A DNA stretch of 64,000 nt from Blasia pusilla. Lineage: Eukaryota. The notes below the pieces were generated by a model. It made no database searches, was not told the DNA's origin, and saw only the letters and a list, made by a program, of their open reading frames with translations. Below are positions 13,491 to 61,702 of this stretch, piece by piece. Both the position numbers and the translations under genes were made by a program. The stretch's first letter is position 1. Each line of letters starts with the position of its first letter. The stretch is taken from contig CM114271.1 of NCBI GenBank assembly GCA_050084515.1, positions 25,358,001 to 25,422,000 on the forward strand. The letters run 5' to 3'.

Positions 13491-13880
13491 AAATCCCAAG
13501 TATGAAGCATATAAATTGTCCCTTCAAATCTGTTTAGCCAGACTTACAATAATGGGACACTACCAAAGATGATAGCTTCACGAGCCTTTCTCAACCTAAC
13601 ATTTTCCTCCCGCATAAGTTCATAAGGAGTTCGAGAAGATTCCTCCTAAAGATTTGAATGTGTAGGGACCATGAGGGAATCTGAAAAATCCCAAGTATGA
13701 AGCATATAAATTGTCCCTTCAAATCTGTTTAGCGAGACTTACAATAATGGGACGCTACCAAAGATGATAACTTCACGAGCCTTTCTCAACCTCACATTTT
13801 CCTCACGCATCAGTTCATAAGGAGTCCGAGAAGAATCCTCCTAAAGATTTGAATGTGTAGGGACCATGAGGGAATCTGAA
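13491..13880. repeat. Tandem duplication, 2 x ~195 bp
   Basis: AAATCCCAAGTATGAAGCAT...CATGAGGGAATCTGAA starts at 13491 and again at 13686, with only a few substitutions. Confidence 0.9.
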
Positions 13881-14572
13881 AAATTTGGTGATCATTTCAA
13901 ATTTTTTTCAAGCAATTAATTGCATAGCTCGATGGAAAGTACATTTAATTGATGCGGAAGGAATGTTCTTATCTCAAAATATAACCTTTTCTAATATTTC
14001 CAAAAATGGAAATTTGATGGAAAAATAATTTCAATGGATATTTATGGCAAGCCCAAAAAATTAAGAACTACCACCTCAAGCCTTTAGAAACATGTTGCCA
14101 ATCCCATACACAAGTGAGGCACTGTTTGAATGAGAGGGAGTGTGAAGGGATATGAGTAGGACACAAGTATTAAAGTAGTGGAACTCCATTACCTGTCCAC
14201 TTTCACTTATAGTTAGTAATTTATTTACCCTTGAGTTGCAATGAATGGTCAAAATATATACTATTAAAAAGGCATAAGGGGATTACTTTATGTAAATAAA
14301 TTAGTTTCTATAAGAAGTAAAGCTTGCTTTCTTTTAGAAGTTCCATCTGCAATAGAAGAATCAAACTCTTGGCTTCAATGAGACATGTTTTGGATCATTG
14401 AGAGATATTTGACGCTCTAGAACTAGGAGTTCCTTACATTCCACAAGACCATCACTTTTCTTTACAATCATTCAAGGTGATATCCGACACTCAAGTAAGA
14501 TAAGAAATCACCTAGTTTAACCAGCAATAAATTGGTAAATATGAGAGTTCATTCGAGGAGCCGGAGAAGTAA

Positions 14573-15919: not shown

Positions 15920-16561
15920 TATTGTGCGCATACACATTGCTATACAACATACATCGCTGTCACCGAACATACACACAAACATACATGATCCCATGCTAAC
16001 TCATGGCATCCACATAACAAGACGAGAAATACCAAAATATCTCCAATCTCACATTGGAAATCAATCAAATCTCTCTACATCTCACACCAAGGTCTCCACG
16101 ATGTGCACTCTCTCTCATGTCAAACCAAACCCATTCTCCTAATGAGAGGCTTGGATTACACACACAAGGCAAAGAGGACCATAGCTTCGCTACCTCATGC
16201 CAAGAGGTTCAACAAAGAGAGAACGAGCTCTCAAGCTTTCTCTCTTGGAGGTATACCCCTTCCCTCTCCCAAGCCCTCTCCTCGGTACCTATGCTCGCAG
16301 GTCACCTCCTTGGATCTTGACTTGCTGTAGCGGGTCAAAGGTTACTTCCAAAAGTGGAAAGTTGACTCTATCATAAACAACCACTTACCCGAAATATTAA
16401 GTTCTTCAATATGGCTGTAAGTGAGCCAAAACAAAGGGGAAACCTGCTCTCGTAAGTTATCCATGGCCTCATCAGGTGATCCTCAACTCCCTAAGGCTGT
16501 CCACCAGTACCTCCTAAGGTGAGCTACTAGATCTCCCCGATCTATCCTAAAAGACGTGACA
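15920..16561 (-). mobile_element. Solo terminal repeat (A+B) of gypsy family 1
   Basis: Reverse complement starts TGTCACGTCTTTTAGGATAG and ends GTGTATGCGCACAATA. Colinear with 24527-25150 and 35467-36102. Flanks ATTG/AGTG (possible 4-bp TSD, 1 mismatch). Confidence 0.85.
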
Positions 16562-17901
16562 AGTGTGTGGCAGAAAGGGAAATACTCTAATGAATCTTTC
16601 TCATGTGTATTTTTGGCCAAAGCATGCTTGAGCCAAGTGCATCACGAAAAGTCTCTTGCGTAGGTTCATTAACCAAATTTGGCATCCATAGAGCATGTTC
16701 AGGATCAAACACTTTGTCACGATTGTTAGGATAGATCAGCAAGATCTAGTAGAGCGCCTTCGGAGATACTAGAGGACAGCCTTAGAAGGTCGAGGATGAC
16801 TTGCTAAGGCCCCGGATAACATGAGAGAAAAAGTTTCCCCTTCGTTTCCGCTCATTTGGAGCCATATAGAGAAACTTACTATTTTGGGTAAGTTTCTATT
16901 TGGAGTGTAGTTGGCTTTCCACTTTGGGAAATGGCCCTTGACCCGCTATACCATGTCAAGATCCAAGGAGATGACTAGTGAGCTCAGGTTATCGTGGAGA
17001 AGACTTGGGAGAGGGAAGGGGATATACCTTCAAGAAAGAGAGCTTAAGAGCTCATTCTCTCTTTGTTGAACCTCTTGGCACGAGGCGGCGGAGCTATGGT
17101 CCCTTGCCTTGTGAGTGTAATCCAAGCCTCTTATTAGGAGGGTGGGTTTGGTTTGACATTGAGAGAGACATGTGAGAGCGCATACATGTGAGAGCTATGG
17201 TGTTGTGAGAGAGATTTGACCTTATTCTACAAAGAGAGAATGAGAGGGTAAGAGCTTCAATGGAGGAGCTTGCTGGTTACTCGCTGTTGGTGCAGGTTTC
17301 GTACCGTATTTCCTATTCAACGGCTCATGGGAGTGCTCACCGGATTAAGCGCTACTTGTTTTACTTTTTTTTGTTGTTAATTTTTTTGTGTGGAAGAGTG
17401 GCGCGCGGATCGGAAGCACTACCCAAATTTCCTTAGAGATGAAGTTTGGGGGCGGATTTCCCCATTCCAGTGCTCTCAAGAGCACCAAGTAGCTTGTTGG
17501 TTTTGATTTTACAGGTCTGAAGTTTTGTGTGGAAGAAATTAGCGCGGAAGCGCTGCCGATTTTGTCCTAGGAGTGCAGATTTGAAGGGCTGCAAGACTGT
17601 TCCTGTCAGTTGTTTTGGGAAAGTTAAATGAAAGAAAAAATTGAACCTTGTCATAGATCTCAAAGCTCTACACGTTGTGTAAGAAACGGTACGCAATTTT
17701 GAGTTGAGAGAAAAACATTATGATCAATCTTACAAAACTGCCATTGCTAGGTGATTTTTAGGGTAAAATTGTTCAAACCCTAAACTAACCGCCGTTTCCG
17801 TCATAGTCACCGTCAACGCTCCTCAGTTAACAATCAACCTTCAGAGTCGACGGTCTGCCATTAACGGTTCACTGTCATCATCCATTGTCCACCGTCAACG
17901 A

Positions 17902-22818: not shown

Positions 22819-24211
22819 GCGAGCACCGTGGGTGCTAGAGAGCGGGATCGGATCGCTACAGCGGGCCAGACGGTTCCGTTGGGAGGGGACACATGTTTTG
22901 AGGGTTTGGGAGGATGGCAGAGTACGCGTAGTGCCACATCCTTTGCAGAGAGCACGACTAGTGCAGCATGCCCACGAGGAGTTGGGTCACTTTGGGGTGA
23001 AGCGGAGATACAGCTTGCTCCAAATTCAGTATTGGTGGCGAGGCATGCAGACTGACATTCAGGAGTTTGTTGCTAGGTGCATGGTGTATGATCGGGTCTG
23101 AGCATCGTTCAATGCTCCGACTCCACAGTTGCATCCATTATCGATCATGGGCTTAGTGTATAGATGGAGTTTGGATTTTGCACGACCTTTGCCTTTGACG
23201 GAGCGTCATAGTCGTTATGTGTTGGTGATGGTCGACCACTTCTCAAAGTGGATCGAGTTGGTTTCATTGCCTGACAAACCGAGTGAGGGAGTAGCTTATG
23301 CCTTCCTTGACAGAGTGCTGAGTCATTACGGTGCACCGGCTGAGGTGTTGACATACCGGGGTACCGAGTTTTGCGGTGAGTTCCAGGCCTTGTGTGATCA
23401 GACACTGATCGATCATCGCACGACTTTGCGAGATCATCCCGAGGCGGATGGATTAGCGGAGAGAGTTGTGCAGACCGTGAAGAGGGGTTTACGCAAGTAT
23501 GGCTTGCAGAGAGTTCACCTAGGAGATTGGGACCTCCAATTGCCCTGGTCGGCGATGGGATACAGATTCAACAGGCAGACATCCTTAGCATCTTTTTCAT
23601 CGTACTTGCTATTTTATGGCCGAGAGCGAGATTTACCTGCGGCCATTCGTCGAGATGCTAGTGAGGTGTTGGACCTTGATGATCCAGATGTATGGATGTG
23701 AGCATGTTCTCAGAGGGCTGAGTTGTTTCGGAGAGTGATGCCCATGGCGTTCGAGAACTTGGCGATTGCACAACATCGGGATACTTTGAGGTATGCGACT
23801 ATTTGGGGTGGTGGTTATCGATCAACTATCGGGAGATTTCATCAAGGAGATTATGTCTACTTGCAGCAGATTGCACCGACGACGTTGGATGGGACTGCAG
23901 GGCGCACTATCCTGAGAGTGCGTGACATTTTTCCGTCCTGTGTTCTCTTGCTGGAGAGACGCGATGGTATGGTATGGAAGGACAATGTGCGTAGTTGTGC
24001 GCCATATCACCTTCCTAACATTGATGGTACAATAGATTCGAGCTCAGCAGTAGTTCCTGCAGGCTTGCGTTGTATGTTGTGTGGTTCTGCCCGTGGTGCG
24101 GCCACGATGCTAGTCTGTGATGTATGTTCGAGAGGTTGGCATATGGCATGTCTGACGCCACCTCTCACTAGGGTTTCTCAGGGACGATGGATGTGTCCCA
24201 GATGTACATAG
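22819..24211 (+). pseudogene. Integrase with C-terminal PHD finger (element 1), interrupted by stops
   Basis: HHCC region (HEELGHFG...CMVYDR), DDE core (WSLDF...VMVDHFSKW...ADGLAERVVQTVK) and C-terminal CMLC...LVCDVCSRGWHMACLTPPL...WMCPRC (C4HC3). Confidence 0.92.
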
Positions 24212-25150
24212 AGGAGATACTAGGTAGGTTTGGATTCCGACTTTTTCTGTGACATGGATGACAGGAAGGCAACTAACGATGGCCCCACATGAGCACCCGA
24301 CCTTGTTTCTCTTAGCGTCCTAGAGATGTATGTCGTGGTAGGTAGAGATAGATGGCTATTTGGAGTTAGAGGGACTTAACCACTAGCTAGGGGGGCGATT
24401 GGAGATATTTGGCACTTCTCGCCTCTGTGTTTGGATGCCATGAGTTAGCATGGGATCGTGCATGTTTGTGTGTGTGTTCGGTGACAACGATGTCTGTTGT
24501 GTAGCGATGTGTATACGCACGACAACTGTCACATCTTTTAGGATAGTTCGGTGAGATCTAGTAGAGCGCCTTCGTGAGTAGTGGAGGATAGGCTCTGTAG
24601 GTTGAGGATGACCTGCTGAGGCCTCGGGAAACCTGAGAGAGCAGGTTTCCTCTTCGTTTCGGCTCATTTGGAGCCATATTGAGGAACTTACTATTTTAGG
24701 TAAGTACCATTTTGAGTATATGATTGACTTTCTATTTTTGGTAATTGGCCCTTGACCTCCTACATCAGGTCAAGAGCCAAGGAGGTGACTTGGGAGAATA
24801 GGTCACCATGGAGAGAGCTTGGGTGAGGGGAGGGGTATACCTCAAGGAGAGAGAGCTTGAGAGTTCATTCTCTCTTTGTTGAACCTCTTGGCATGAGGCG
24901 GCGGAGCTATGGTCCCTTGCCTTGTGAGTGTAACCCATGCCTCTCATTAGGAGAGTGGGTTTGGTTTGACATGAGAGAGAGTGCATACCTTTGAGAGCTA
25001 TGGTGGGAGATGGTGTAGAGAGAGATTGGATCTTACTTTATTGGAGATATTTTGGTACTTCTCGCCTTTGAGTTTGGATGCAATGAGTAAGCATGGGATT
25101 GTGCGTGTTTGTGTGTGTGTTCGATGATAGCGATGTGTATGCGCACGACA

Positions 25151-26880
25151 GATCAAACCTTCTATCAAAATAAGGATTTTTCCTTTTCCATCTTGTCCAA
25201 ATTTCTCATCTTGAGCTCAAATTAGGCTAACATGATCCCCAAGGTTCATGTTCTATGCTCGCCAAGTTTCAAGCAAAATGGAGTTGTGAGCAAAACCTCA
25301 CAAATTAATAAGTCCTTTTTTGACTCGGACCATTAGACCTTTTATCAAAATAAGGTTTTTTCATTCTTCATCTTGTCTTACTTTCCTATCTTGAGCTGAA
25401 ACTTGGCCCATATAGTCCTCAAGGTGCATGTTCCACTCTTGCCAAGTTTCAAGCAAAATGGAGTTGTGAGCAGACTCTTACAAATTAATAATTCCTTTTT
25501 GGACCCGAACCATCAAACCTTGAATAAAAAGAAGGTCTTTTCATTTTTCCTCTTGTCCAACTTTCCCATCTTAAGCTGAAATTTGGCCCAAATTGTCCCC
25601 AAGATGCATGTTCTACTCTTGCCAAGTTTGAAGCAAAATGGAGTTTTGAGAAAAACCTCACAAATTATTAACTTCTTTTTTTACCCTAACCATCAAACCT
25701 TGAATGAAAAGAAAGTCTTTTCATTTTCATCTTGTCCAAATTTCCCATCTTGAACTGAAATTCTGCACACATGGTTGCCAAGATGCATGTTTAACTCGTG
25801 CCAAGTTTCAAGTAAAATGGAGTTATGAGCAAAACCTCAAAAAGTAATATCTCCTTTTGTGACCCGAACCATTTCATTTTTCATGAAATGCAAAAGGATT
25901 TTTCATTTTTCATCTTGTCCCATTTTCCCATCTTGAGCTGAACTTATGCTCAGAGGGTCTCCAAGGTGCATCTAACCCTCTTGCCAAGTTTCAAGCAAAA
26001 TGGAGTTGGGACCACAAGCTTAAAAATTGGTAAGTCCTTTTTTGACCTCAACCATCACACCTTCTATCAAATTAAGGTTTTTTCATTTTTCATCTTGTCC
26101 CATTTTCCCATCTTGAGCTCAAAGTTGGCCTACATTTTCCCCAAGATGTATGTTCCACTCTTGCCAAGTTTCAAGAAAAATGGAGTTGTGAGAAAAACCT
26201 CACAAATTAATAACTCCTTTTTGGACCCAAACGATGAGACCTTCTATAGAAACAAGGATTTTTCATTTTTCATCTTTTCCAAATTTCAGATCTTGAGCTA
26301 AAATTTTACCACGTGGTCTCCGAGCTGCATCTAACATTATTTCTAAGTTTAAAGAAAAATAGAGTTGGGAGCAAAACCTTTAAAAAAAATGTCCGTTTTA
26401 GACCCAAACCATCAAACCTTGAATGAAAATAGGATTTTTTCATTTTTCATCTTGTCAAAATTTCCCATCTTGAGCAGAAATTTGGCCCACATGATTCCCA
26501 AGGTGCATGTCACACTCTTTCTAGCTTTCAAGAAAAATGGAGTTCATAAATTAATAACTCCCTTTTGGACCCGAACCATTAAACCTTGAATGAAAAGAAG
26601 GTGTTTTCATTTTTCATGTTGTCCAAATTTACCATCTTGAGCTGAAATTTGGCCCACATGGTCTTCAAGATGTATCTAGTTGTGTCGCCAAGTTTCACCC
26701 AAAATGGAGTTGTGACAAAAAACTCAAAAATAGGTAAGTACATTTTGGCCTCAAACCATTAAACCTTCAATGAAAAGAAGGTTTTTTTATTTTCATCATG
26801 TCCAAATTTCCCAAGTTGTTTATTTAGCACTCTTGCAAAGTTTTGAGCAAAATGGAGTTATGACCACGAGCTCAAAAAGA
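25151..26880. repeat. Tandem array of ~180-bp monomers (~9.5 copies)
   Basis: Motifs TTTCCCATCTTGAGCTGAAA...GCCAAGTTTCAAGCAAAATGGAGTTG...GACCCGAACCATCAAACCTT recur at ~25201, 25381, 25561, 25740, 25921, 26101, 26281, 26460, 26628 and 26805. Confidence 0.95.
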
Positions 26881-35466: not shown

Positions 35467-36412
35467 GCATACACATCGCTGCACAACATACATCGTTGTC
35501 ACCGAACACACACACAAACACGCACGATCCCATCCTAACTCATGGCATCCAAACAACGAGACAAGAAGTACTAAAATATCTCCAATAAAATAAGATCCAA
35601 TCTCTCTCACAACACCATAGTTCTCACATGTGTGCACTCTCACATATCTCTCTCAATGTCAAACTAAAGCCACTCTCCTAATGAGAGGCTTGGGTTACAC
35701 ACATAAGGCAAGCAAGACCATAGGTCCACTGCCTCATGGCAAGAGATTCAACAAAGAGAGAATGAGCTCTCAAGCTCTCTCTCCTTGAGGTATATCCCTC
35801 CTCTCTCCCAAGCTCTCTCCATGGTAACCTATGCTCCCAAGTCACCTCCTTGGCTCTTGACTTGATGTAGGAGGTCAAGGACTACTTACCAAAAATAGAA
35901 AGTAGATCATATACTCAAAATGGTACTTATCTAAAATAGTAAGTTCCTCAATATGGCTCCAAATGAGCCAAAACAAAGGGGAAACCTACTCTCTCAAGTT
36001 TCCCGGGGCCTCAACAGGTCATCCTTGACCTACTGAGTCTGTCGTACACTACTTACGAAGCGCTCTACTAGATCTCACCGATCTGTCCTAAAAGACGTGA
36101 CAATTATCGTGCGCATACACATCACTACACAACATACATCGTTGTCACGGAACACACACACAAACACGCATGATTCCATGCTAACTCATGACATCCAAAA
36201 AATGAGACAAGAAGTACTAAAATATCTCCAATCGCCCCCCTAGCAGGTGGTTAGGTCCCTCTAACTACAGATAGGCATCTATCCCTACCTACCATGACAT
36301 ATATCTCTCGAACGCTAAGAGCAAGAAGGTCCGGTGCTCATGTGGCCCCATCGTTAGTCACCTTCTTGTTATCCATATCACAGACACAAGTCGGAATGTA
36401 GAACTACCTATT

Positions 36413-37790
36413 CTATGTACATCTGGGACACATCCATCGTCTCTAAAGAACCCTAGTGAGAGGTGGCGTCAAACATGCCATATGCCATCCTCTCGAACAC
36501 CCATCACAGACTAGCATAGTGGCTATATCATGGGCGGAACCACACAACATACACCGCAAGCTTGCAGGAACTATTGCTAAGCTTGGATCAACTGTATCGT
36601 CAATGTTCAGAAGATGACATGGCGCACTGTTACGCACACTGTCCTTCCAAACCATATCATCGCTTCCCTCCAATAAGAGAACACCGAATGGCAAAACCTC
36701 ACGCACTCTCAAGATGGTGCGCCATGCAGTCACATCCAACATCGTGGATGCCGTCTGCTGCAAGTAGACATAGTCTCCCTGATGAAACCTCAAGATAGTA
36801 GGTCGATAACCACCTCCCCAAATAGTCGCATACCTCAACGTATCCCGATGTTGTGCAATCGCCAAGTTCTCAAACGCCATGGGCATCACTCTCCAAAACA
36901 AGTCAGCCTCTGATAACATGCTCGCATCCATACATCAGGGTCATCAAGGTTCAACACCTCACCAGTATCTCGACAAATGGCCGTGTGTAAATCTGGCTCT
37001 CGGACATAAAGCGACAAGTATGGTGAGAAAGACGCTAAGGATGCCTACCTGCTGAATCTGTATTCCATCGCCAACCACGGCAACTAAAGGTCCTAATCTC
37101 TTAGATGACCTCTCTACAAGCAATACTTGCATAGTCCTCTCTTCACCGTCTTCACACCCCCCCCTCTGCTAGTCCATCCGTCTCAGGATGATCTCGCGAA
37201 GTAATGCGGTGGTCGATTAGTGCCTGATCACACAAGGCCTGAAACTCCCCACACAACTTTGTACCCTGGTCTGTCAACACCTCCGCTGGTGTGCCGTAAT
37301 GACTTAGCACTCGATTTAGGAAGGCATACGCTACTCCCTCACTCGCTTTGTCAGGCAATGCAACCAACTCTATCCACTTCGAGAAGTGCTCGACCATCAC
37401 CAACACATAACGACTATGGCGCTCTGTCAAAGGCAAAGGTCGTGCAAAATCCAAACTCCATCTGTAACCTAAACCCATGATCGGAAGTGGATGCAACTGT
37501 GGAGTTGGAACATTGAACGATGCTCAGACTTGATCACACACCATGCATCTGGCAACAAACTGCTAAACATCAATCTGCATGCCTCGCCACCAATACTGAA
37601 TCTAGAGCAAGTTGTACGTCCGCTTCACTCCAAAACGACCCAACTCCTCGTGGGCATGACGCACCAAACGTGCTCACTACACGCACGCTACCATCCTCCC
37701 ACAACTCATAACGCATATCTGCCCTCCCACTGGAACCATCTGGCTTGTTATAGGATCTGATCCCGCTCTCTAGCACCCATTGTGCTCGCG
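36413..37790 (-). pseudogene. Integrase + PHD finger of element 2
   Basis: WSLDFARPL...VMVEHFSKW...VLTDQG...DHPETDGLAE, then CMLCGS...LVCDGCSRGWHMACLTPPL..*RRWMCPRCT*. Confidence 0.9.
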
Positions 37791-38020: not shown

Positions 38021-39406
38021 CTAACTCGGGCATGGGTTACGACTCAAACCATCTGCATCCTGGTTGAGCATCCCTGGTCTATGCACCACTTGGAAGTCAT
38101 ACTCCTGCAACAAAAGAGCCCACCTTGCAAGCTTCCCTGTAAGCTTGTCGGACTCCATCAACCACTTAAGTGGCTGATATTCAGTAATGATGGTAAAGGG
38201 ATTCCCGAATAGATAACATCTAAAATGTGCGACAACCCACACTGTAGCCAAGCACTCACCCTCATACGAGCTATACTTCGCCTCTGCAGCGTTGTTCGAG
38301 CAACTAGCGTAAGCCACCACGAACTCTCTACCATCATCGTCATGCTAGGTGAGCATGGCTCCAAGCCCCAACATGCTCTAATCGGTATGCAAGTGGAAAG
38401 TACGCCCCTTGATCGGTCTCTTCAATATGGGCGCGGACGTCAATTTTTCCTTGAGCATCTGAAATGCTCTTTCTTGCTCATCCTCCCACTGCCACTCCTG
38501 ATCCATCTTGGTCATCAAGGTTAGCGGCTTCACAATTGAACTAAAACCCTTGACGTACCGTCGATAGAAGTTCACAATCCCATGAATGCATGAATTCGAA
38601 TCACATCAATAGGGCGCGGAATGCGTGAAATAGCCTCTACCTTTGTTTATTGCACACCAAGGCCCCCAGGGTATATTGTATGATCAAAGTACTCAATCTG
38701 GTCATAGAAGAACTTGCACTTGCCTAGATGTAGCTTCAGTCCATGTAATTGCAATCGTCAAAAAACCTCCTCTAAATGTCCCTCATGCTCCTCAACTGTG
38801 GCACTAAAGACTACGATATCATCAATATAATACCTAGAAAAATCCAGACCTACCAAGATCCTATCCATGACCCTCTGAAACTCAGCCAAGGCGCTCTTTA
38901 ATCCAAATGGTAAGAACCGGCACTAGTACAAACAATCCTTCCCGTGAGGATCGATGTCCCAAAATGCCGTCTTCTGCCTGTCCTCCAATCTGATAGGCAG
39001 TTGATGGTATTCGGCTTGCAAATCCAATGAACTGAAGACCTTTGCATGCCCGATCGCATCAAATATCTCCTTAGGAGTGGGCATGGCATACCTATCAAAC
39101 TTTGTCTGTCGATTGATAGGTCGATAATCTCCACACATCCGCCTATCCGTCCAATTGCCATGCACATCCTTCTTGACGCGCATGACAATGGCAGATGCAT
39201 ACTCTCCATGCAAAATCTCCACTAGTCCTGCTCCAACCAAGTCCTGGCTTCTACTTTGAATCAGAGCCCTCTCCATATCACTATACCTATAGGGTCATCG
39301 AAGATCAGCGTGTCACTCTACAACTCAATGCGGATCCCTGGACCCTTCAACATACCCAAATCATGCATACTAAATGCAAAACAACTCCTATAACTCCTAA
39401 GGAGCT
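38021..39406 (-). pseudogene. Reverse transcriptase + RNase H of element 2
   Basis: RRMCGDYRPINRQT, FSSLDL..YHQL, YIDDIVVFS (~38810-38830), NFYRRYVKGFS, LHTD, YSSYEGECLA, LARWALLLQEYDF, DADGLSR. Confidence 0.92.
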
Positions 39407-40137
39407 TGTCGTGCGAATCGTTGACATACCATACTCACATACATACATAACATAGACGAGAGCATCCACAAACATAACTGTACCACAACTGAAATCCGTG
39501 AAAGACCTACTGTCATAAAACACATATAGAATCACGCACAATCGAGCCAAACCCACTCCACGATGGGAGAATCTAGGTCGAAGCTTGCGGGGAAGACCAT
39601 AGCCAAGAGCTCTACTCACTACCAAGGCTAACTCCCAATGCAACAGGCTCAACTCAAAGAACTGACTGTTCTTTGGATGCACTCCACACTATATCCTCCA
39701 ACCGAAGAGCGGGCCCTACTGGGAAAGTTACCCCAACTAAGTAACCCCCAACCCTATGTATGAAACCACATCTCTACCTAGCCACTACGGTCCTACATAA
39801 GGTATGGCCTCTACTAGCACACTATATTCTACGACATAATCCGTATGGTTACGACAACTATCATGCGAATCCACCTTGTCATATAATATACATCGCTGAC
39901 ATACCATACTCACATACATACATAACATAGACGAGAGCATCCACAAACATAACTATACCACAACTCGCCCCCCTAACTGGCGGTTAGATCCCTCTAACTC
40001 CCAGGTAGCCCTATACATCTACTACGTGCTATACACCTTCGTGGGTGCACGAATCAAAAGGCCGGGTGCTACGTTGCCCCATTGTTAGTCGCACATCTGT
40101 AATCCATATCATGCAAAGATCAAGTCATCTACCTCTC

Positions 40138-41561
40138 CTAAATACATTGAGGACAAACCCACCTTCTAGTAGGAACAACATCCATACGTGGAGTCAAACA
40201 TATCATGTGCCAACCCCTAGAACACTGATCACACACCAACATACGGGCTGCGTTACCAGCAGACCCACACAACATGCACCTCAAGCTAGCACGTATCATG
40301 GCTAAGCTTGGGTCAACAGTACCATCCACATTTGGAAGATGACATGGCGCACAATTACGCACATGGTCCTTCCAAACAACTCCATCACGATCCTTCAACA
40401 TGAGAACTCCAGAAGCTAACACCTCGCGCACTCGTAAAATAGTGCGGCTTGCCGTCACATCCAACGTTGTCGGTGCAATCTGCTGCAAATAGACATAGTC
40501 CCCCACATGGAACCTACGAATCGATGGTCGATAACGTTCATCCCGAAAGGTTGCATACCGCAACGTATCTCTATGTTGAGCAATGGCAAGATTCTCAAAG
40601 GCTGTTGGCATAACTCTCCGAAAGAGCTCTGCCCGCTGAGAACATATCCTCATCCACATCTCTGGGTCATCAAGGTTCACCACCTCACTAGACTCCCGAC
40701 GAATTGCTGCTGGCAAGTGTGGATCTTGGCCGTATAATAGAAAATAAGGTGAGAAGGAAGCCAAAGATGCTTGGCGACTGAACCTATATCCCATGGCTAA
40801 CCATGGCAACTGAATATCCCTGTCTCCAAGGTGCCCCTTCTGTAAGCCATACTTGCACAATGCCCTCTTCACCGTCTGAACCACACGCTCAGCCAAACCA
40901 TCCGCCTCTGGATGATCTTGAGACGTGGTCCGATGATCAATCAACGCCTTGTCACACAAGACCTGAAACTCACCCTGAAACTCTGTACCCTGGTCGGTTT
41001 GCACTTCAGATGATGCACCAAAATGACTAAGCACTCTATGAAGAAACGCGTACGCCGTACCCTCACTTGCCTTGTCAGGTAATGCCACCAACTCAATCCA
41101 CTTGGAGAAGTGCTCCATCATCACCAACACATATCGATATGTCGTACAGTCAACGGTAACGGTCCCGCAAAGTCCACACTCCAACGGTAACCCAACCCCA
41201 TAATACGCAAGGGGTGTAACTGTGGTGTAGGGGCATTGAATGATGCCCTCACCCGGTCACAAACCATACAACGTGACACCAACTGCTGCACTGAGTATGC
41301 ATGCCACGCCACCAATATCGACCAAGGAGTAAGCTATACGTACGCTTTACCCCCAAATTGCCCCAACTCCTCATGGGCATGTCGCACAATGCGCTCTCTC
41401 TGAGCCAAATGCGGCACTACTCGTACTCTACCATCCTCCCACACACGGAGAATATGTGTTCCCTCCAATCGATACCTCTTAGCACGTTGAAGAACACGAT
41501 CTCGCTCCTTGGCACTCACTATGCCTGGCACCCTACTGGTCCGTATGAACTCCAACACCAA
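40138..41561 (-). pseudogene. Integrase + PHD finger of element 3
   Basis: 348-aa ORF with DDE core (MMEHFSKW...TDQGTEF...ADGLAERVVQTVK) ending CMLCGS...LVCDQCSRGWHMICLTP...WVCPQC. Upstream HHCC fragments. Confidence 0.92.
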
Positions 41562-41627
41562 CGCATCATCATGAATATCACGCTGATCCGCACGCCATCT
41601 CCAACCTTAGGATCTCAAGGTGGCCAT

Positions 41628-42880
41628 CTACCCTCGACTAGAGTAAGATGTCATGTGGTCCTCCATACTAGAGTCCACCCCTAACCAACATAAAAAGGCG
41701 GATGCATGCCAACCTGGCACCATCTCCTCATCAACCTCGCCATGCCATCTAACCCCAGTTGCATCCTCTTGGCTAGTATATGGGTTCCTACTCAACCCAT
41801 CAGCATTAAGGTTGGCAACTCCAAATCTATGTACCACATGGAAGTCATACTCCTGTAAGATAAGAGCCCACCGTGCAAGCTTCCCTATAAGCTTGTCGGA
41901 CTCCATCAACCACTTGAGCGGCTGGTGATGAGTAACAAGGGTAAACTGTGTGCCAAACAAGTAACACCTAAAGTGTGCCACAACCCACACTATTGCCAAG
42001 CACTCTCCCTCATATGAACTATAGGGCGACTCCGCTGCATTATTCGAACGACTTGCATAGGCCACCACAAACTCCATGTGCTCATCATCATGTTGTGTCA
42101 TACCGCTCCAAGTCCCAACCTACTCCAATCAGTGTGTAACTGAAATTGGCGCCCTCTAATAGGTCTCCTCTAGATAGGCGCCGCCACCAACTGGGCCTTA
42201 AGCTCCACAAAAGCTCTCTCTTGATCATCTCCCCTGTGCCACTCTTGATCTGATTTCAGCAATTGGTTCAAAGGCTTTGCCATAGCACTAAATCCCTTCA
42301 CATACCTCCGATAGTAGTTCGCCAATCCCATGAATGCCCGAACTCTACTCACATCTACCGGACGCGGAAAAAGTGCAATAGCCTCCACCTTTGCTTGCTG
42401 AACTCCCAAACCACCTGGATAGATCACATGACCCAAGTACTCAATATCCTCATGGAAGAACTTACACTTTCCTGGAATGCAAACGTAGACCATGAGCTTT
42501 CAACCGCTCAAACACCATCTGCAAATGTATGTGATGCTCCTCCACCGTGTTACTGAACACCAAGATATCATCAATGTAACACCGAACAAAATCCAACCTT
42601 GCTAGGATCCTGTCCATCACTCTCTGAAATTTGGCAGGTGCATTCTTCAACCCAAAGGGTAAGAATTTCCACTCGTACAAACAATCCTTGCCATGAGAGT
42701 GGACACCCCAAAATGTTGTCTTGGCCTTGTTACTCTCCCAAATTGGCAATTGATAGTATCCAGCCCGAAGATCCAAAGTACTGAAAATCTTTGTCTGTCC
42801 CACCACATCAAAGATCTCCTCAGGTGTAGGCATGGCATAGCTATCGGCCTTGGTTTTCCGATTGATAGGACGGTAATCTT
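41628..42880 (-). pseudogene. RT (N-terminally deleted) + RNase H of element 3
   Basis: DYRPINRKT...LDLRAGYYQL...LPFGLKNAP...CYIDDILVFS; ANYYRRYVKGFS; YSSYEGECLA...ARWALILQEYDF...NADGLSR. Confidence 0.92.
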
Positions 42881-42899
42881 CCACGATAATAGTCCGAAG

Positions 42900-43880
42900 T
42901 CGACGCTGATCGGCCATACCAAGACTCAAAATCCAAGTCAAACAATTCAAGTCCATGGCCTGATCCAACACAACGTCATGAAGCCTCAGAAATGGAAGCA
43001 ACCGTTGTCACACCAGTAGCAAATCCCATCGCACGCTCTATCTCATCAGCATTAGGCTCCACCAACTGTCGCACATGAGAATCCCATACAAGCCCAGGAC
43101 CACCTTCCCTGTATGCATGTGACGAGGGAAAACTCACAAATATGGGTAGTGCCATCCTAGGTTGGCCCACACGATTCACCACTGCCATGGGTGACCGATC
43201 AATAACCCTCACTACCTGAGAAAGTCGCCTAGTATCCAAGATACTATCCACTGTAAGGCAAGGATCCCGCTGCACTGCATCATATGCTCGACGTAGAACC
43301 TCCCTAGGCAACAAGTTTGTCCACCACAAGCGTGGACGATGTGCACGAGAGCCAACTCGCGCTGCATCCAACAACACCGCTGGTCCAATCCAAGACCGCA
43401 CCTCATGAACACTCGCCATCATCCGGGTCTGAGTGTCACCCAACAATGGAAAATTCTCCAGAATGTAAGCTAGAGTATGTGCCTGATGAACCTGAAGATG
43501 TCGTAACACCCGTAACATCTCCCAAAACAATCGAGACCTAGGGTCGTGTAATCCCTCACCACGACCACCACGTGTATGACCCTGACATGGCCATCCAGCA
43601 ATCACCAAATCCACAGGACCAACCCTCTCAAGGTCCTGCGCCCCCAACAATACAATGTGTGACGGCAAAGCACGTTGGTACCCACGAATAGCTGATGGCG
43701 GCAACAACTCAAGATATCTCCGCATCAACTGACCAATATGTCAGGATGAGACTCTCTGGGCCGTCTCATCTCGCTCCACATACACGTACCTCCGCACAGG
43801 AATACCGGCCTGCAACACTGCAGCCAAACCAGTGCTAATCCCACCAAAGAGATCTAACACACAAATGCCCTCCGACGGAT
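42900..43880 (-). pseudogene. DNMT3-like C5 cytosine methyltransferase domain within pol of element 3
   Basis: Motif I VLDLFGGISTG, II YVERD, IV DLVIAGWPCQG, V DPRSRLFWE, VI YILENFP, VIII DAARVGSRAHRPRLWWTNL, IX EIERAMGF, X VLDQAMDLNCL. At least one stop (43741) and one frame break near motif X. Confidence 0.93.
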
Positions 43881-44034
43881 ACTGCCATATAATGGGTATA
43901 GTATCCAAAGGGGATAACCCAACTGGACCAAAAGTAGGAGTCCGCCGTGGGGCCTCCTCTTCCTCGTGAGGTATAACAGCCTCACACCAAGCCTCTTGCA
44001 CTAGGCGATCAGCCTCTTGCGGTAGTGCACCGCC

Positions 44035-44820
44035 TCAACTCCAAAGTGGCACATCCAATGATGAGGATGCCACTGCTGCAAAAATAGGGACCTCCTCTAC
44101 CTCTTCATGCACAGGAGAATCCATAGCAGCAACATTACCCTCCAAAAAGTCTCTTGGCCAAGTGACTACTCCACTAAAACCAGCCAGAGATGCTAACACT
44201 GTTGGGGAAGACCCTCTTGGTCGAGCCCCATAAATAAATCTCACAGTAACTTGGCTCATATGTCCATCCCCGGACTGCCAACCAGGTCTATAAGACGCTG
44301 TCTCAGTCCAATAATCCATGTGAAAACCCATCCGGTACAATATTGCTCCTCTAACTAGTATATCATATTACTCGCATGATGTGACCACTGCACGTACTCC
44401 CAACCGAGATCTATCAGTCGCATGATCTGGTCTCAACAGTACAGAAAACTTCTGCCGTGTCATGAATTGAGACCTATCATTGGCTCCTCCAAGTGATGTT
44501 TGAATCTGGAATGGGCAAGGCTCAAGCTCTGACCTCCGAATACCCAAACCAATACATGTCGCCTTTCCCAACATCAAAGGTTGGGCACCAGAGTCTAACA
44601 AGACTCTATATGGTCTATACACCTGTCTTGTAGGACTTACCAATCGGAATATCCCATTCCGGTTGTCCAACATACATACACCAGGTGTAAGCCTCTCGCG
44701 ATCAATGGCTGGTCGGGTTGGTAATGCATCCATCTTCACCGCTGCTGCCTGCCAAGTAGCACTGATACTTAATGCTACACTTGACATAGAGGGTCGCTCC
44801 ACCGCAACACCCTCATCCAT
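44035..44820 (-). pseudogene. Aspartic protease of element 3
   Basis: RVLLDSGAQPLMLG...CPFQIQTSLGG. Confidence 0.85.
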
Positions 44821-45282
44821 CTCAGCACGTGCAGCAGTAACACCCCCACGTTCTTACAACGTGGCTGCTAACTGAAATACAGGAGCTAAGTTAACTCCTA
44901 AAGCCATTAGTTCCGTGGCCAAAAACAATGGGGATCCCAACACTGAAGTTGCCATCCGCAATACTGCATTGGATGCTGCAGCCGTGTCTACTACACGCGA
45001 TGTAGATGCCTCAGTCCCCAATGTCGGCTCAATAGGCTGCGTAGGAACCATGGATGGAGTCCTAAGCACCTCAGACAACAAGAATGACTGGGAAAGCCTA
45101 GCCTGCCTCCTAGCCTCATCCCTCTGTGGGTCCAACTCCACCGTAGCACCACGTGGCTCTGACGCTCGAGTGGCTCCTCTCGTAACTGCAGCCGATGCCT
45201 CAACTTGTGTTGCACTCGCCATATAAGAGAGATCATCCCCTCCATAAGAGATGGAAGCCCCTGCTCCCGAATCTGATCTATG

Positions 45283-46519
45283 CTAGATACCAGCCATAGT
45301 AGCCAACTTCTCCTCCAACTGCTCAATCTTGGCAGCCATAGCTGACTCTGTCATAGTGGTAGGGGTGGCCACCGTAGGCTCTCCAACCACCGGTCCACCT
45401 CTACCACCTCTACCACCTCTACCACCTCGGCCAATGCTCTCGAGGATGACTTGGTCTCCCGCAATGATCACACTAAAATGGGGCCGACTGAGGCCCATCC
45501 TCCAAAGTCCGTCTCCCATCCTCTTGGGGATAAAACTTCATAACATGATCACCTCCACATGTCCAACATGACTGTCCTTGCTACGGGGCAGCAAATGAAG
45601 GCAATGGTCTCTGCGCAAGTGTCCCTCTAGGACCTGACTGAGGTCGTGTGTACCCCCCACGACTCCCACTACTACTACCACCACCACTACTACAAGATTG
45701 TGAGGTGGGCTGCTGAACATGAGAAGTAGTAGTTGTATCCCTAGTGAATGCGGATGTCACCACTCTCTCCTTCACCATGTTAAGCTCAATCTTCTCAGAT
45801 AGAGCAAACACATGGGTCAATGTGGGTGAATCATCACTCATAAGAGTAGCATCACGTACCCTGCGGCGCAACTCTCTGTCCAAGATCCCATACCAAAACT
45901 GGATTGCCTAAGCCTGAGTCACACCCTAGGTAATTGATCAAGCGTCGCATACGAGTGTATGCCTCACGAAGACTCTCACCAGTCTTTCGCTCAAATTCCT
46001 GAAGACTCCTCAACTTCTCTATCTTCACTCCCTGATAGTTCTTCTTCAACCTCTTGAAGAACTCTGCAATCGGGCTGAACGATGGTCGGGCACTAGTACC
46101 TCCACTAGTACCCCCATTGGTACCTCCATGGGTACCTCCACTCGTACTCCCACTCCGGCTCGCACTCGTACCACTCAACGTCGGGCTGGTTAGCATAGTA
46201 GGAGCACTACTACCAATACCACCATGGGTGATAGACACATAGCCTGGAGACCAATATTGTCTCCACGCCTCAATCTCAGCAACATGATCCTTCCTAAACT
46301 CATGGTAATCATCCATGGGTGGTCCCTCCAAGTGCTAAAACAACCCCTTCCAAGCCAAGAAGGGTTCCGCAACATCTGCATATCACACCATGTATCAAAC
46401 TCCTGCATGAAATCCTCCAACTCAATGGTGCCCACTGCACTCGAGTATCGTCGTGGGCCCTTCATGGTCCCATATATTCTGTCCATGTCCCAAATCAATG
46501 GAGCTGCAACGTTTAACAA
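45283..46519 (-). pseudogene. gag of element 3
   Basis: AVGTIELEDFMQEFDTWCD, MDDYHEF, GVKIEKLRSLQEFERKTGESLREAYTRMRRLI (retrotransposon gag-like) and an RGG-rich nucleocapsid region. Confidence 0.8.
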
Positions 46520-48899
46520 CGTAGAAGACTCGGTGTTTGGAACACCCTCGTCCTTCTATTCATCAACTGTCGGAAGTGGAAAAGGTAGCCGATACCTCAA
46601 TCCACTCTGTGTAAAACCACCACTGTCCGCACCACGGTCCCCAACCTGACCACCAGACAGCTCCGTGATGACCAACGCCGATGCCGCACCACCACCAAAT
46701 TACCTCCACTAAGTAACCCAGTGACGTGGATGTCGTTGTACTATTCTAGCTCTACTAGCTATAGGTGTAGGCAACCTAACCTGTCATCACCACAAGAAGC
46801 CTCCCACGGTCTACTGGTCATCACTCCAGCCTCATTACTGCTAGCACACAGGAATAACACTACTTTGGAAATCAGCATCAACCCTAACAATGGGCGTGCA
46901 AGCAAGAAGCAACGATGGAGGGGATCCAAACACAAGAAGTCCAACGACAATCCTCCAATCGCAAATGGAAATCAAGGTAACACAATCCACCAAACGTGGC
47001 ATCCCCTGAATCCACAAAACCCACCACACAATTCTAACGCAATAGCTACTCCGCCGCGGGTCGATGACGCGCTAGTCGAACTTGGAGCACCATAAAATAT
47101 CACCTGTATGGAGAGGCTACACCGTACTATGTGCTAGAGGTCCATCAACCAAAAACCTGAGATGCATAAAGTGCCTAACACCTCTCCGAAGAGCACCAAA
47201 TGATCTACACCAATGTGTACACTGGCATAGTTAAGAACTCAGCAGTTAAGCGTCTTCCAAGCAGAATAGCCCAAAGATGGGTGACCAGTTATGCAACACT
47301 CAAATCACAAATCCTGCAGAAATTGCCTCACACCCAAGCAAGCAAGCAAGCTGCTTGCTTGCTTGCTTGCTTGCTTGCTCCTTGCTTCTTACTCCGCCTC
47401 TTTCTCCCACTCGCCCCGAGCTACCACGAGTTGCCTCGAAGCCTCAAAACGCCGAGAAATGCTTGAGACATGCCCCTATCGCCCGCTTCGCCATGCTTCG
47501 CTATGGAGAGAGGCCCAACCAGGGTAGGCATCTCCAACAATGAACGAGTCACCAACCAACCAGCCCCTCCAATCCGTTGTTGACCTTGAGCTAGTCCGCG
47601 AAATTTCGATCAGCAATTACTCCACAAATCCTCTACCAAAATTGAATTTTTTTCAACCAGAATTCAATTGACCACCATTGCTATCTCTCCACAAAAAATC
47701 AGCTACAACCAAGCTCTGCACTCCGAGCTAAAAATCAGACAAACTTGTTGTCCATACACCTCAAGAATCGCAAATCCGACAGCAATTCCGCCCAGTTTCA
47801 TGCACGTAGAAATCTGCAACGCTCCACACACTCAAGCAGATAGCTTCACATGAGATCACAATACAAGTAGCAATAGGAACCTCTCACCCAATCTGGATGA
47901 ACTTCAACACAGCTTCCGCACTCCAAGCTCTCCACATCAGAAAACCGTCGAACACGAACCAGAATCTTCAATCCTTGATAACTTCCAACTCCCTTGACGA
48001 AATCTGGCAATCTAAAGCGCGTTGGAAAGCTCTCACCAAGGCGCTTCTTTCCCAACCAACCACGCAGCAGATTCCTACCTCCAACATAGGCCACATGCCA
48101 TGAACATCCACGGATGAGTACACAATCAGCCCTAACCAGATCCTACTGATCCACAATCGAAGCTACCATGGATCTACTCTAGTTCTTTGAGTGAAATCCG
48201 TGAAAGACCTACTGTCATAAAACACATATAGAATCACATACAATCGAGCCAAAACCCACTCCACGATGGGAGAATCTAGGTCAAAGCTTGCGGGAAACAC
48301 CATAGCTAAGAGCTCTACTCACTACCAAGGCTAACTCCCAACGCAACACGCTCAACTCAAAGAACTGACTATTCTTTGGATGCACTCCATACTATATCCT
48401 CCAACCTAAGAGCGTGCCCTAATGGGAAAGTCACCCCAACTGAGTAACCTCCAACCTTATGTATGAAACCGCATCTCTACCTATCCACTACGGTCCTACA
48501 TAAGGTATGACCTCTACTAGCACACTATACTCTACGACATTATTCGTATGGTCATGACAAACTAGTGTATCCGGCTCCGCTCTCCTCCTGTCAACTTAGG
48601 GCCCATATCTAGCTCCCAAGTCTCCATCGTGACTACGGTAGGACTCTCCGGCGCGGGTATTGGTGGTTGCTATGGTGCAACCCCGTCTCGGACAATAGAA
48701 CTCTCATCTCCACGTGCAATATCCAGAACCACACTCGATGTTGTGGCTATCATTTCCTGGTGTACCTGCAAAACATCCCAAGAAGTCCAAGGGTGTCTCT
48801 CCCAATCATCCTTGGTGTGTTGATCTCCTCGGGTGTCGCCCCAAGCCACTGCCTCAACCATCTCGATAGGCGTGGGGCTCACCAACGCAATAGTTGCAA

Positions 48900-52539: not shown

Positions 52540-55500
52540 GGAATGAGATCAAGGTGGTCTCTCACGTGAAGACCCTCAATCTACACTCTCTCACTAAGAT
52601 GTGTGTTGTGCGGCAACGAGCAACGTGGTGCAGAAAATCAACCCATCTATCGTCTCATCGACAAACCATCCTCAACTCTGAACATCCTAGACAGGTCTAT
52701 GTACGTCCCCTAAACCCATAAACCATAGATGCTCCTAGCATCAGCACAAAACCCAATATCCCAAATGACTTCCCAATATCTGAAAATTCCTCACACGTGC
52801 AGGGTAAGAGACCATAATGGGTAACTTGACAATAATATTGACGTTGCTCCTCGACAATTGCAAATCTCAACCCCAATTTGGTCGTGAAGATAACTCCTCC
52901 AATCAGCTAGTCGTACTCCTCGTGTACTGACGCTGCTTAAACCTCCTCGACATGCGGTGCAAGTCCAATGATCCGGTGCGGCATTGGCGGCACGGAACGA
53001 CTACAAACGGCACGACACTCGAGAATGGGGTGCGGGACTTAGCGGCATACCCTCCTCAATCAAAAATTCATACGCTCTACTCCTTAGTGAAGGAGCAGCT
53101 CCGCGATCGAGATGGTGCGATGCCGCCATGAGCGGCACGATGTGGCAATCCGCGGCGTGTTACGGCTACGGGCGTCACGGCACGGTACTCGATTGTCGTC
53201 GAGCAGCTACCAATTGCAACATAGAAACATGAAATGAAAACACCATAACCCAAGGCCACCATCACTGGTTGATGACGAAACTATGATGACGGTGACAGCC
53301 AAACCAAAGTACGTAGTGGCGGGGCAAGTCAGCAAATCAACGGTGGTCGTGGAAGACCCTCCACTCCGTAATGGCGGCAATGGCAACCAAAGGGTGGACA
53401 ACGGCCAAACGCAGCTCTGAGCAGCGCTAGGCGACGACAGCGGCCGACGATGGATGGTGGATGGTGGACGGTGGACCATTGACGGTGACGGTTGATGATA
53501 ATGGTGACGAAGGACCGTTGATGATGATTATGACGGCGACGGCCGCCGTCGCCGCTGTTGCTGGTTTAGGGTTTGAATAATTTAACCCTACTTCTGCCTA
53601 GCAATGGAAGTTTTGCAAGATGGACCATAACTTTTTGCTCGCAACTCCAAAATGCACATTTTTTGTTGCACACTATGCAAACCTTTAAGAGCTACAACAA
53701 CATCAAAAATATTTGGAATGGGATGTTCATGTAAAAACTCAATCCCTATCAAAAATTGGGCAGCGCTTCCGCGCGCCACTCTTCTACACAAAACATTGCC
53801 AAAGAAAACATCACAAGTAAGCGACTCTTGCTTTGGTGAGCACTCCCATGAACCGCTGAACGGGGAATACGATCCCCAACCTGCAAAACCAACGAGTGAC
53901 CAGCGAGCTCCCCCATGAAGCTCTCTCACTCACTCATTCTCTCTTAGTAAAATAAGATCCAATCTCTCTCACAACACCGTAGTTCTCACATGTGGGCACT
54001 CTCACATGTCTCTCTCAATGTCAAACCAAACCCACTCTCCTAGTAAGAGGCTTGGGTTACACACACAAGGCAAGCAAGACCATAGCTTCGCCGCCTCATG
54101 CCAAGAGGTTCAACAAAGAGAGACTGAGCTCTCTCAAGCTCTCTCTCCTTGAGGTATACCCCTCCTCTCTCCCAAGCTCTCTCCATGGTAACTTATGCTC
54201 CCAAGTGACCTCCTTGGCTCTTGACTTGATGTAGGAGGTCAAGGGTCACTTACCAAAAATAGAAAGTCGATCATATACTCAAAATGGTACTTACCTAAAA
54301 TAGTAAGTTCCTCAATATTTCTCCAAATGAGCCAAAACGAAGAGGAAACCCGTTTCCCGGGGCCTCAGTAGGTCATCCTTGACCTACTAAGTCTGTCCTA
54401 CTCACAAAGTGCTCTACTAGATCTCACCGATCTGTCCTAAAAGACGTGACAACCCTTTCCATAATAATTCACTCACTTTAATTAGATGGTGAAATAGCAA
54501 AATCTAATATACAAACAAACATATAATTAACTTTTGATTATTCACCTCGATTAGTAAGATATAAGCGGCCAATGGGATGCCCGCAACCATTTCTTTTTTG
54601 TATCCTATGAATCTATCTCTTTTTTGTTCAATGATAATATGAAGGAAAATCTATAAAAAGATATTCAAGGTTGCATGCGGACAAAGTCTGCATTTGCGGA
54701 CTTTTCCGTCCCGAGGAGGAACATGTCCGTGCGGGCCCGGATGCGCGCTCCATGAGCCCACGTTGCTCACGGACTGCACCTGGGACTACCCACACCAAGC
54801 ATTCCACCCTTGCTTGGCTAGTGCGCATCACGCTCGGCGCTTGTTTTTCAATCAAGCCCGTTTTTTTCACTTGCTAGGATCTGATTGTTGTGAGATTTTC
54901 TTCAGCAAGGTAGGTGCTCATGAAAGAAACTATGACTTTGGATCTCTACTAGATAGTGCACTAGGAATGAATCAATTGGCTATCTTAGAGTATGGACCAT
55001 AAGGATTAAAGATACGTCGTTCATATCATAAACAAGATCATGTTTAGGAAAAATTGTATCCTTTTGGTGAGGGAGACCAAGCTCCAAATCTATTTGATTA
55101 TTCAGTGGGTGAAGAAATAGATGTCAACATTGACCCGAAATCCATGGAGATGGAGATATTAGGACATAAAGTAAGGCATGTGTTTGCATTTGTTCAAGCA
55201 GAAGTGACTAATGGGGCGATTCCCCATGCAATAGTGCCGATTGTAACTTATGAGAGCAAGATTATCTATAAATCTACCCTTGTAAGTCAATTGTCTTGCA
55301 ATCCTTTCATGTCAAAGGACAAGCTTACTCGAATAGCCCAAAAGACATAGTACACTACTGGTAAGGGAAAGGAACGTGATCCTAATTTTCTAACTTGTAT
55401 GGTTGATGTTGGTAGTGATATCGCAATTTTGTTTGAATCTACAGTAGACGTTGGCCCTTCCACAAGAAAGGGACAATGTCTGCAAGTAAGTGATTGCTTT

Positions 55501-60740: not shown

Positions 60741-60743
60741 TGA

Positions 60744-61702
60744 AGAAGTCCAAGGGTGTCTCTCTTGATCATCCTTGGTGTGTTGATCTCCTCAGATCTC
60801 CTTCCTAGCCATTGCCTCAATGGTCCTGATAGGCATAGGGTTTACCACAAGAATCGATGTGATCGTCGAATCCTCAAACGATGCTGCTCAGCTATTCCTA
60901 AGGTGAAAATCCATGTCAAGCAGTTCAAGTCCATCACCTGATCCAAGACATGGCGTCGTGATGCCTCTGATAGTGACGGTATTGCCGTTACTCCTGTGGG
61001 GAATCCCATCGCTCGCTCTCGCTCATCGGTGTTGGGCTCTACCAACCTTTGTACCTAGTCATCCCAAACCAAGCCAAGAGCATCCTCCTTGAATGCATAG
61101 GAAGCAATAAAACTCACAAATGTGGGAAAGACCACCCGTGGCATGCCAATCCTGTTAACCACAATTAACGGCAGTCGATCATAGTGCCTCACTGCTTGTG
61201 ATTGACAACTTGAATCCAATATAGAATCCACCAACAAATGAGAGGGAATCTCCACTCTTGCATAAACCCTCCACAACACCTCATATGGCACCAAGTTGAT
61301 CCACCAAAGACGCGGGCGATGTGCTCGTGAACCCATACTCGCCGCATCCAACAAAACTGCCGCGCCGATCCATGAGCGCACCTGATGTGCACTCGTTACC
61401 ACACGGAACCTAAAATTTCCCAAAACCGGCACATTCTCTAGAATGTATGCTAGAGGATGAGACTGATGCTTTTGCAAGTGTCACAAGATCCGTATCATCT
61501 CCCAGAACAACCTGGACCGAGAGTGAGCTATTCCGCTACCCCGTCCAACACTCGATTGGCCCTGACATGGCCAACCAGCAATGACCAAGTCTATGGTCCC
61601 TACTCGCTCTAAGTCCGGTGCCCCCAACAATGAAATGTCCCTCGATAGGAAACTCTGGTAACCCTGAATGGCGGACGTAGACAACAAGTCAGGAAAACGG
61701 AG
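60744..61702 (-). pseudogene. Orphan fragment of the gypsy DNMT domain (motifs IV-X)
   Basis: DLVIAGWPCQG...RSRLFWEMIRIL, YILENVP, DAASMGSRAHRPRLWWINL, ERERAMGFPTGVT...RRHVLDQVMDLNCL. Colinear with 48781-49740; no motif I and no terminal repeats. Confidence 0.9.

Follow-up and report, generated by a model that had tools for sequence, protein, structure and literature searches.

Self-priming of minus-strand synthesis is established for Tf1 of fission yeast and for the sushi-group elements. A separate set of elements (DIRS, Ngaro, and PAT) uses a tyrosine recombinase and makes no target duplication. To our knowledge, the origin of split direct repeats has stayed unexplained since DIRS, PAT, and Ngaro were described.

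Among plant LTR elements, self-priming is predicted for 12%, in the Tcn1 and TAR lineages, according to the sections of the lineage survey considered here (PMC6317226). Those sections place Tcn1 in seed-free plants and give it a mean size of 6.4 kb, 5-bp target duplications (100%), and a chromodomain (100%); no lineage in the survey's table shows both self-priming and 4-bp duplications. An earlier study looked at plant Tcn1 without finding a priming site. The sections of PMC5890265 considered here describe KnitGypsy-Dnmt3 of Klebsormidium nitens (2018) as a gypsy-type pol joined to a DNMT, with DIRS-like repeats; a term search of the main text gave no occurrence of "primer binding" or "PHD". 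Literature listings and term searches yielded no description of priming in gypsy elements that carry a DNMT or a PHD finger. Judged by listings, we found no description of DDE-integrase elements with split direct repeats either.

Three elements in the window (the whole 64-kb stretch of DNA that was analysed) can be set beside these systems. Their Pfam domains follow the order RVT_1, RT_RNaseH, Integrase_H2C2, rve, which is the Ty3/gypsy order, and the related locus L013 shows the same pattern. The features expected of a Ty3/gypsy element were found: reverse transcriptase, RNase H, and DDE integrase in that order; termini TGTC...GACA; and 4-bp duplications. The closest solved reverse transcriptase is that of Ty3 (4ol8, E 2.4e-27). 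At the integrase C-terminus of elements 1, 2, and 3 and of L013, Pfam identifies a PHD finger and finds no chromodomain. The best solved matches to the PHD finger in the PDB are fingers that read histone tails, those of KMT2C/D, DPF, and ATXR5. Upstream of the reverse transcriptase, the pol of element 3 contains a DNA_methylase-like domain (42976–43737, − strand; 30.7 bits, cut-off 22), and L013:6353–7753 gives a match of the same kind at 18.1 bits. A tyrosine recombinase was also sought, and no recombinase family appeared among the 42 ORFs scanned. All copies are degenerate. No open frame of at least 600 aa lies within any element studied; the only two such frames in the 80 related loci introduced below (815 and 803 aa) are on the opposite strand, outside the elements.

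Like Tf1 and the sushi group, these elements have a site right after the 5' repeat that is complementary to the predicted RNA start, show no TGG after A1, and keep a pol order of the Ty3/gypsy type. Unlike them, they carry a PHD finger instead of a chromodomain, make 4-bp duplications, and have both an extra arm (arm1) upstream of the start and, following the right A repeat, one B repeat more. With Tcn1 and TAR they share membership in the plant LTR elements and a self-priming predicted from sequence. They differ from Tcn1, as it is given in the same sections of PMC6317226, in five respects: 4-bp duplications, the PHD finger, the DNMT-like domain, a size of about 9.1 kb, and split repeats. The lineage thus characterised lacks two Tcn1 features, the 5-bp duplication and the chromodomain, and appears to be Tf1-like at the priming step. 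KnitGypsy-Dnmt3, likened here by its description in those sections of PMC5890265, resembles the present elements in the DNMT domain within pol and in the A1...B1-A2-B2 layout. DIRS, Ngaro, and PAT also resemble them in layout (A1-internal-B1-A2-B2), whereas the elements here encode a DDE integrase (rve, H2C2) and make 4-bp duplications.

The full order of parts is A1, site, internal region, G-rich tract, B1, 2 nt, A2, and B2, which differs from that of a plain LTR element. Element 3 is nested inside element 2, on the − strand. The features are these:

15920–16562, − strand: solo A-B copy of the element 1 family.
16715–17229, + strand: left repeat A1 of element 1, beginning TGTCAC (five-copy A alignment and self-BLAST).
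17021–17028, + strand: TATA-like GATATACC of element 1, read from the sequence.
17035–17042, + strand: arm1 of element 1, AAAGAGAG, in the sense of the priming site; it can pair with 17057–17064.
17051–17066, + strand: arm2, or R-site, of element 1, CTCATTCTCTCTTTGT; predicted first 16 nt of the RNA and proposed self-primer.
17229–17244, + strand: predicted primer-binding site of element 1, which shares its first base with the end of A1.
23702–24208 (+ strand), 40138–41253 (− strand), and 36443–36931 (− strand): PHD regions at the integrase end.
24388–24398, + strand: polypurine tract of element 1, TAGGGGGGCGA, adjoining the start of B1.
24399–24524, + strand: B1 of element 1, ending GACA and followed by AC (2 nt) and then A2.
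24527–25040, + strand: right repeat A2 of element 1.
25041–25150, + strand: B2 of element 1, ending GACA and followed by a 180-bp satellite.
53933–54451, − strand: left end of element 2 (A1 53948–54451, R-site 54113–54128, priming site 53933–53948).
35467–36233, − strand: right end of element 2, B1-A2-B2, with B2 truncated.
48192–48559, − strand: left repeat A1 of element 3 (TGTCATG...TTTCA).
48355–48366, − strand: arm2, or R-site, of element 3, AGTTCTTTGAGT; the T of TATA (48396) lies 30 nt upstream.
48181–48192, − strand: predicted primer-binding site of element 3, ACTCAAAGAACT.
39407–39976, − strand: right end of element 3, with polypurine tract (39965–39976), B1 (39859–39964), 2 nt, A2 (39490–39856), and B2 (39407–39489).
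48560–48563 and 39403–39406, − strand: target duplication of element 3, AGTT on the left and AGCT on the right (empty-site reads).

The satellite array directly after B2 of element 1 spans 25151–26818, with a unit of about 180 bp and at least nine units. Elsewhere in the window, a 195-nt unit occurs twice in tandem at 13491–13884, the two being 96% alike. An ORF with DUF4218, a plant transposase-associated protein domain, occupies 59559–60164 (− strand), beside a fragment of another element 2-like copy at 60743–61702.

The initial annotation had proposed that these elements carry a self-priming site in place of a tRNA primer-binding site, and the pairings on which it relied are present. In element 1, CTCATTCTCTCTTTGT at 17051–17066 is the exact reverse complement of 17229–17244 (16/16); an inverted-repeat search extends the pair to 20 nt at 95%, and the minimum-energy fold contains it. 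Base 17229 is the last base common to all five A copies in the alignment, where left/right homology stops, and the priming site therefore starts exactly at the end of A1. The TATA-like GATATACC lies upstream, its TATA beginning (T at 17023) 28 nt before 17051. Element 3 keeps the geometry with a different sequence: AGTTCTTTGAGT, read from 48366 to 48355, is exactly complementary to 48192 through 48181 (12/12); TCAGTT and GATATAGT are both present as annotated, and the TATA box is 30 nt upstream of the R-site. Element 2, described as having two mismatches, does pair at 14 of 16 positions (54128 through 54113 with 53948 through 53933). Across elements 1 and 3 and the related loci, the TATA box stands 28–32 nt upstream of arm2. 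The absence of TGG also holds: none occurs within 20 nt of the A1 end in elements 1, 2, or 3, and none was found after A1 in the left ends of the related loci.

The integrase-PHD frame of element 3 was used to scan metagenome contigs for relatives; it gave 339, and 80 loci at 50–86% identity were kept. The 25 loci that show a B pair after the integrase frame were examined, and 24 share the same right end: a tract such as CTAGGGGGGCGA adjoins B1; B1 ends GACA, followed by two variable bases and an A2 that begins TGTC (TATC in a few); and B2 adjoins the final base of A2 and terminates in GACA (or differs from it at one base), with unrelated flank beyond. The remaining locus, L079, is without the tract and the B1-A2-B2 features. 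Left ends could be compared in three families: elements 1 and 2; element 3 with nine further independent copies in related loci; and L074. (Left repeats of families L018, L026, L065–67, and L069 are absent from the loci, so only three families were compared.) Counting identical flanks once (L007 = L029, L011 = L012, L060 = L061), there are 14 independent left ends.

At these left ends, the longest exact complement anchored at the end of A1 measures 16, 8, and 12 nt in elements 1, 2, and 3; 12, 17, 9, 6, and 10 nt in L006, L007, L011, L013, and L063; and 10, 8, 7, 6, 6, and 5 nt in L075, L074, L060, L036, L010, and L050. One hundred downstream windows per copy served as controls, with maxima of 9, 8, and 9 nt for elements 1, 3, and 2. 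Runs of at least 9 nt occur in 7/14 A1 copies versus 5/1400 control windows (control maximum, 10 nt); the anchored pairing is beyond chance. The seven copies with shorter runs have point mutations or deletions of the arm2 site in A. Relatives of element 3 keep the pairing sequence of element 3, and support within a family is mostly conservation plus decay. At the corresponding position, L074 (integrase about 50% identical) carries another sequence, and its folded leader has 17 of its 20 5'-most nt paired with the 3' end.

Covariation across families, suggested as a check in the initial annotation, bears out a site conserved as structure. Eleven leaders from the three families were aligned over a nine-pair helix (99 cells). 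Standard pairs fill 93.9% of the cells, and both sides have changed in five of the nine pairs. None of 500 shuffles reaches the observed value, and slid registers give 27–56%. The minimum-energy structure closes the 5' end onto the site in all six leaders folded.

A second, shorter pairing partner accompanies this helix. Arm1, which has the sense of the priming site, precedes arm2 in all three families. It falls downstream of the TATA box but upstream of the predicted RNA start, and can pair with arm2: 17035–17042 with 17057–64 in element 1, and 48378–72 with 48364–58 in element 3. Its length is 10 bp in L006 and relatives and 6 bp in L074. In element 1, a direct repeat covers both arm1 and the site (17029–17048 and 17225–17244, 75%). 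The priming site, having the same sequence as arm1, could conceivably have originated as a direct repeat. Given its position, arm1 would be missing where the RNA begins but present in the 3' repeat. There it could mask the internal arm2, leaving only the 5'-terminal arm2 to prime.

Two independent loci, L022 and L032, contain insertions of another kind (L033 is the same place as L032). At L022:1283–1798 and L032:3361–3878, B1-NN-A2 is followed by the reverse complement of A2 nucleotides 1–180, and B2 is missing. The inverted copies are 95.0% and 94.3% identical to the element's own A2. Each begins with the priming-site sequence directly after the last base of A, and stops exactly at the A terminus, ...CATGACA, where flank begins. 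In our reading, L022 and L032/L033 are fossils of events in which the element's own strand mis-primed. Two routes could produce them: the right end of the cDNA, carrying a copy of the site, might snap back on arm2; or the primer might be an uncut piece of element RNA ending in arm2. Under either route, the strand acting as primer at the site in L022 and L032 would be the element's own, not a tRNA.

These observations argue for a Tf1-like model, much as first annotated: the geometry recurs in three sequence-distinct families, with the site adjoining the last base of A1 and the TATA box 28–32 nt upstream of the R-site. It is likely, then, that these Ty3/gypsy-type elements use their own RNA to prime minus-strand synthesis, in the manner of Tf1. 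The predicted transcription start lies about 28–32 nt after the TATA box inside A. The first 12–17 nt of the RNA (arm2) would fold back onto the site directly after A1, and an RNase H cut after arm2 would leave a 3' OH to be extended by reverse transcriptase. The plus strand would begin at the G-rich tract adjoining B1.

The best-placed alternative is that the stem joining the RNA start to the site is a leader structure with some other role (packaging, dimerisation, translation, or poly(A) control), minus-strand synthesis having another primer. The stem does close the whole R-U5 leader in 6/6 folds, the second hairpin formed by arm1 and arm2 is conserved too, and self-priming is predicted here from sequence. 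Several facts speak against such a role, however: in all three families the last base of A is also the first of the site; the right cDNA end deduced from the A2-B2 junctions is that same base; the two inverted-copy insertions continue without a break from the site into upstream sequence of the element itself, which an own-strand primer would give; and no other candidate priming site lies next to A1. Overall, this alternative is improbable.

Priming by a host tRNA, a tRNA half, or another small RNA, with the repeat match secondary, is more doubtful still. Some plant copia lineages do use tRNA halves without a TGG start, according to the sections of PMC6317226 considered here, and the window and the 80 loci (823 kb together), in which ARAGORN found no tRNA genes, supplied no host tRNA to set against the sites. 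Yet the site sequence differs among the three families; in each it matches the family's own repeat, and in none does it begin with TGG. The inverted-copy insertions, moreover, read on into the element rather than into a tRNA.

Chance inverted repeats in low-complexity GA-rich sequence can be dismissed almost outright: the site of element 1 is indeed rich in purines, and A contains comparable GA-rich runs, but CTCATTCTCTCTTTGT at up to two mismatches has 7 matches in the window versus 0.09 expected from shuffles (the others being homologous places in other copies of the same A repeat), control windows reach 9 nt in only the 5/1400 cases given above and never exceed 10 nt, and the geometry recurs with non-GA sequence in other families.

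Under self-priming, the priming site should mark one end of the cDNA, and the initial annotation placed that end at the end of A. This much has independent support: the A2-B2 and A1-site junctions share the last A base, and the inverted copies start there. The same base is not, however, the end of the provirus; the integrated element ends at B2, with 4-bp target duplications. In the element 3 family, 18 of 20 A2-B2 junctions fall at the same last A base as the A1-site junction, the other two lacking 1 or 2 bases. The left boundary of B2 varies (TTG, GTTG, or CGAGTTG), which is what a G-rich tract cut at varying places near its end should leave. The junction itself takes four forms: +G; +A; +CGAA; and, at one junction, a 17-nt filler duplicating some of the A end. 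The four forms do not track the tree of copies. The junction sometimes contains CGA belonging to the end of the polypurine tract. Counting against the self-priming model, normal A2-B2 junctions are without priming-site bases; in Tf1, a copy of the primer reportedly stays on the cDNA end.

The provirus end of element 3 is fixed by its empty site. Reads of other copies of the element 2 family supply a direct joint from 39402 to 48560 (112 + 144 DNA reads, with 4 letters that fit both sides) and a second form with 5 other letters between (175 + 165 DNA reads, also in RNA). Because of these reads, the element 3 insert runs from TGTC (48559) to GACA (39407), with AGTT and AGCT outside, a 4-bp duplication with one mismatch. 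Perfect 4-bp duplications lie outside the A1 start and the B2 end in L007 (AAGG), L010 (TCTC), L013 (CATA), and L074 (CATA). Element 1 has no 4-bp duplication, and its flanks differ (ACTT versus GATC); the 8-nt GATCAAAC is found on both of its sides, offset by 4 nt on the left and not in the register of a 4-bp duplication. The integrated form is A...B-NN-A-B, with termini TGTC...GACA.

Reverse transcription by the proposed route would yield a different linear product, B-NN-A...B-NN-A, since the priming site and the polypurine tract set its ends. No standard scheme accounts for a B repeat beyond the right edge of A2; the process must include another step, one absent from the initial annotation. 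Two junctions hint at what it may be: B1-NN-A2 looks like a circle junction of integrase-defined ends, GACA-NN-TGTC, and A2-B2 looks like the joined ends of the reverse-transcription product. Possibly, though we put it forward tentatively, the reverse-transcribed DNA is circularly permuted relative to the integrated DNA, each cycle joining the cDNA ends and the DDE integrase cutting an internal att palindrome. The cDNA ends would be joined either by a third template switch (of the plus strand, from right end to left end) or by end-joining. The integrase would then cut at the terminus-proximal GACA-NN-TGTC sites, inside the repeat that reverse transcription defines.

A scheme in which a two-repeat circle is cut at random at one or other internal junction was rejected in its simple form: its mirror product, A-B-NN-A-site..., occurs in none of about 10 independent left ends. 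One element of the L074-like family, at L080:9186–9300, ends right after B1 (...CATGACA, then flank) without A2-B2. Two origins would fit: insertion as A-internal-B, or recombination between B1 and B2.

Self-priming is itself a known mechanism. What is new is its occurrence in a PHD- and DNMT-carrying gypsy lineage outside the standard LTR surveys; the natural mis-primed insertions, which would preserve priming as sequence fossils; and cDNA ends, fixed by the priming site and the polypurine tract, that differ from the ends of the integrated element. This mismatch of ends makes the origin of split direct repeats directly testable, and the permuted relation of cDNA to provirus is the part worth following. 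If true, the permutation would be a new replication scheme for LTR elements, and would supply a model, built on a DDE integrase, for how DIRS-like elements come by their split direct repeats. LTR finders that need target duplications right outside the A repeats probably miss such elements.

Both families are transcribed. Three RNA runs with the same species label cover them at 88% likeness or more, and the first mate falls almost only on the + strand, indicating sense RNA under the usual convention. One DNA run covers the families at a depth of about 200–2500 from about 1% of its reads; both are therefore highly repeated. Among the RNA ends listed (12/15), with depth in 507-nt bins, none pile up at 48366 or 54128, the starts predicted for elements 3 and 2. 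The only RNA "begins" listed near the site are one at 48399, with 8 molecules from one run, and one at the homologous position 39696, with 19 molecules from another; both fall at the TATA box and are indistinguishable from clipped alignments. In the RNase H/integrase region of element 3 (40610–41636, − strand), a joint skips 1025 nt, with 30 other letters between. It appears in 15, 21, and 32 reads of the three RNA runs and in 0 DNA reads at a depth above 1000; splicing or rearrangement of a transcript from one of the copies could explain it.
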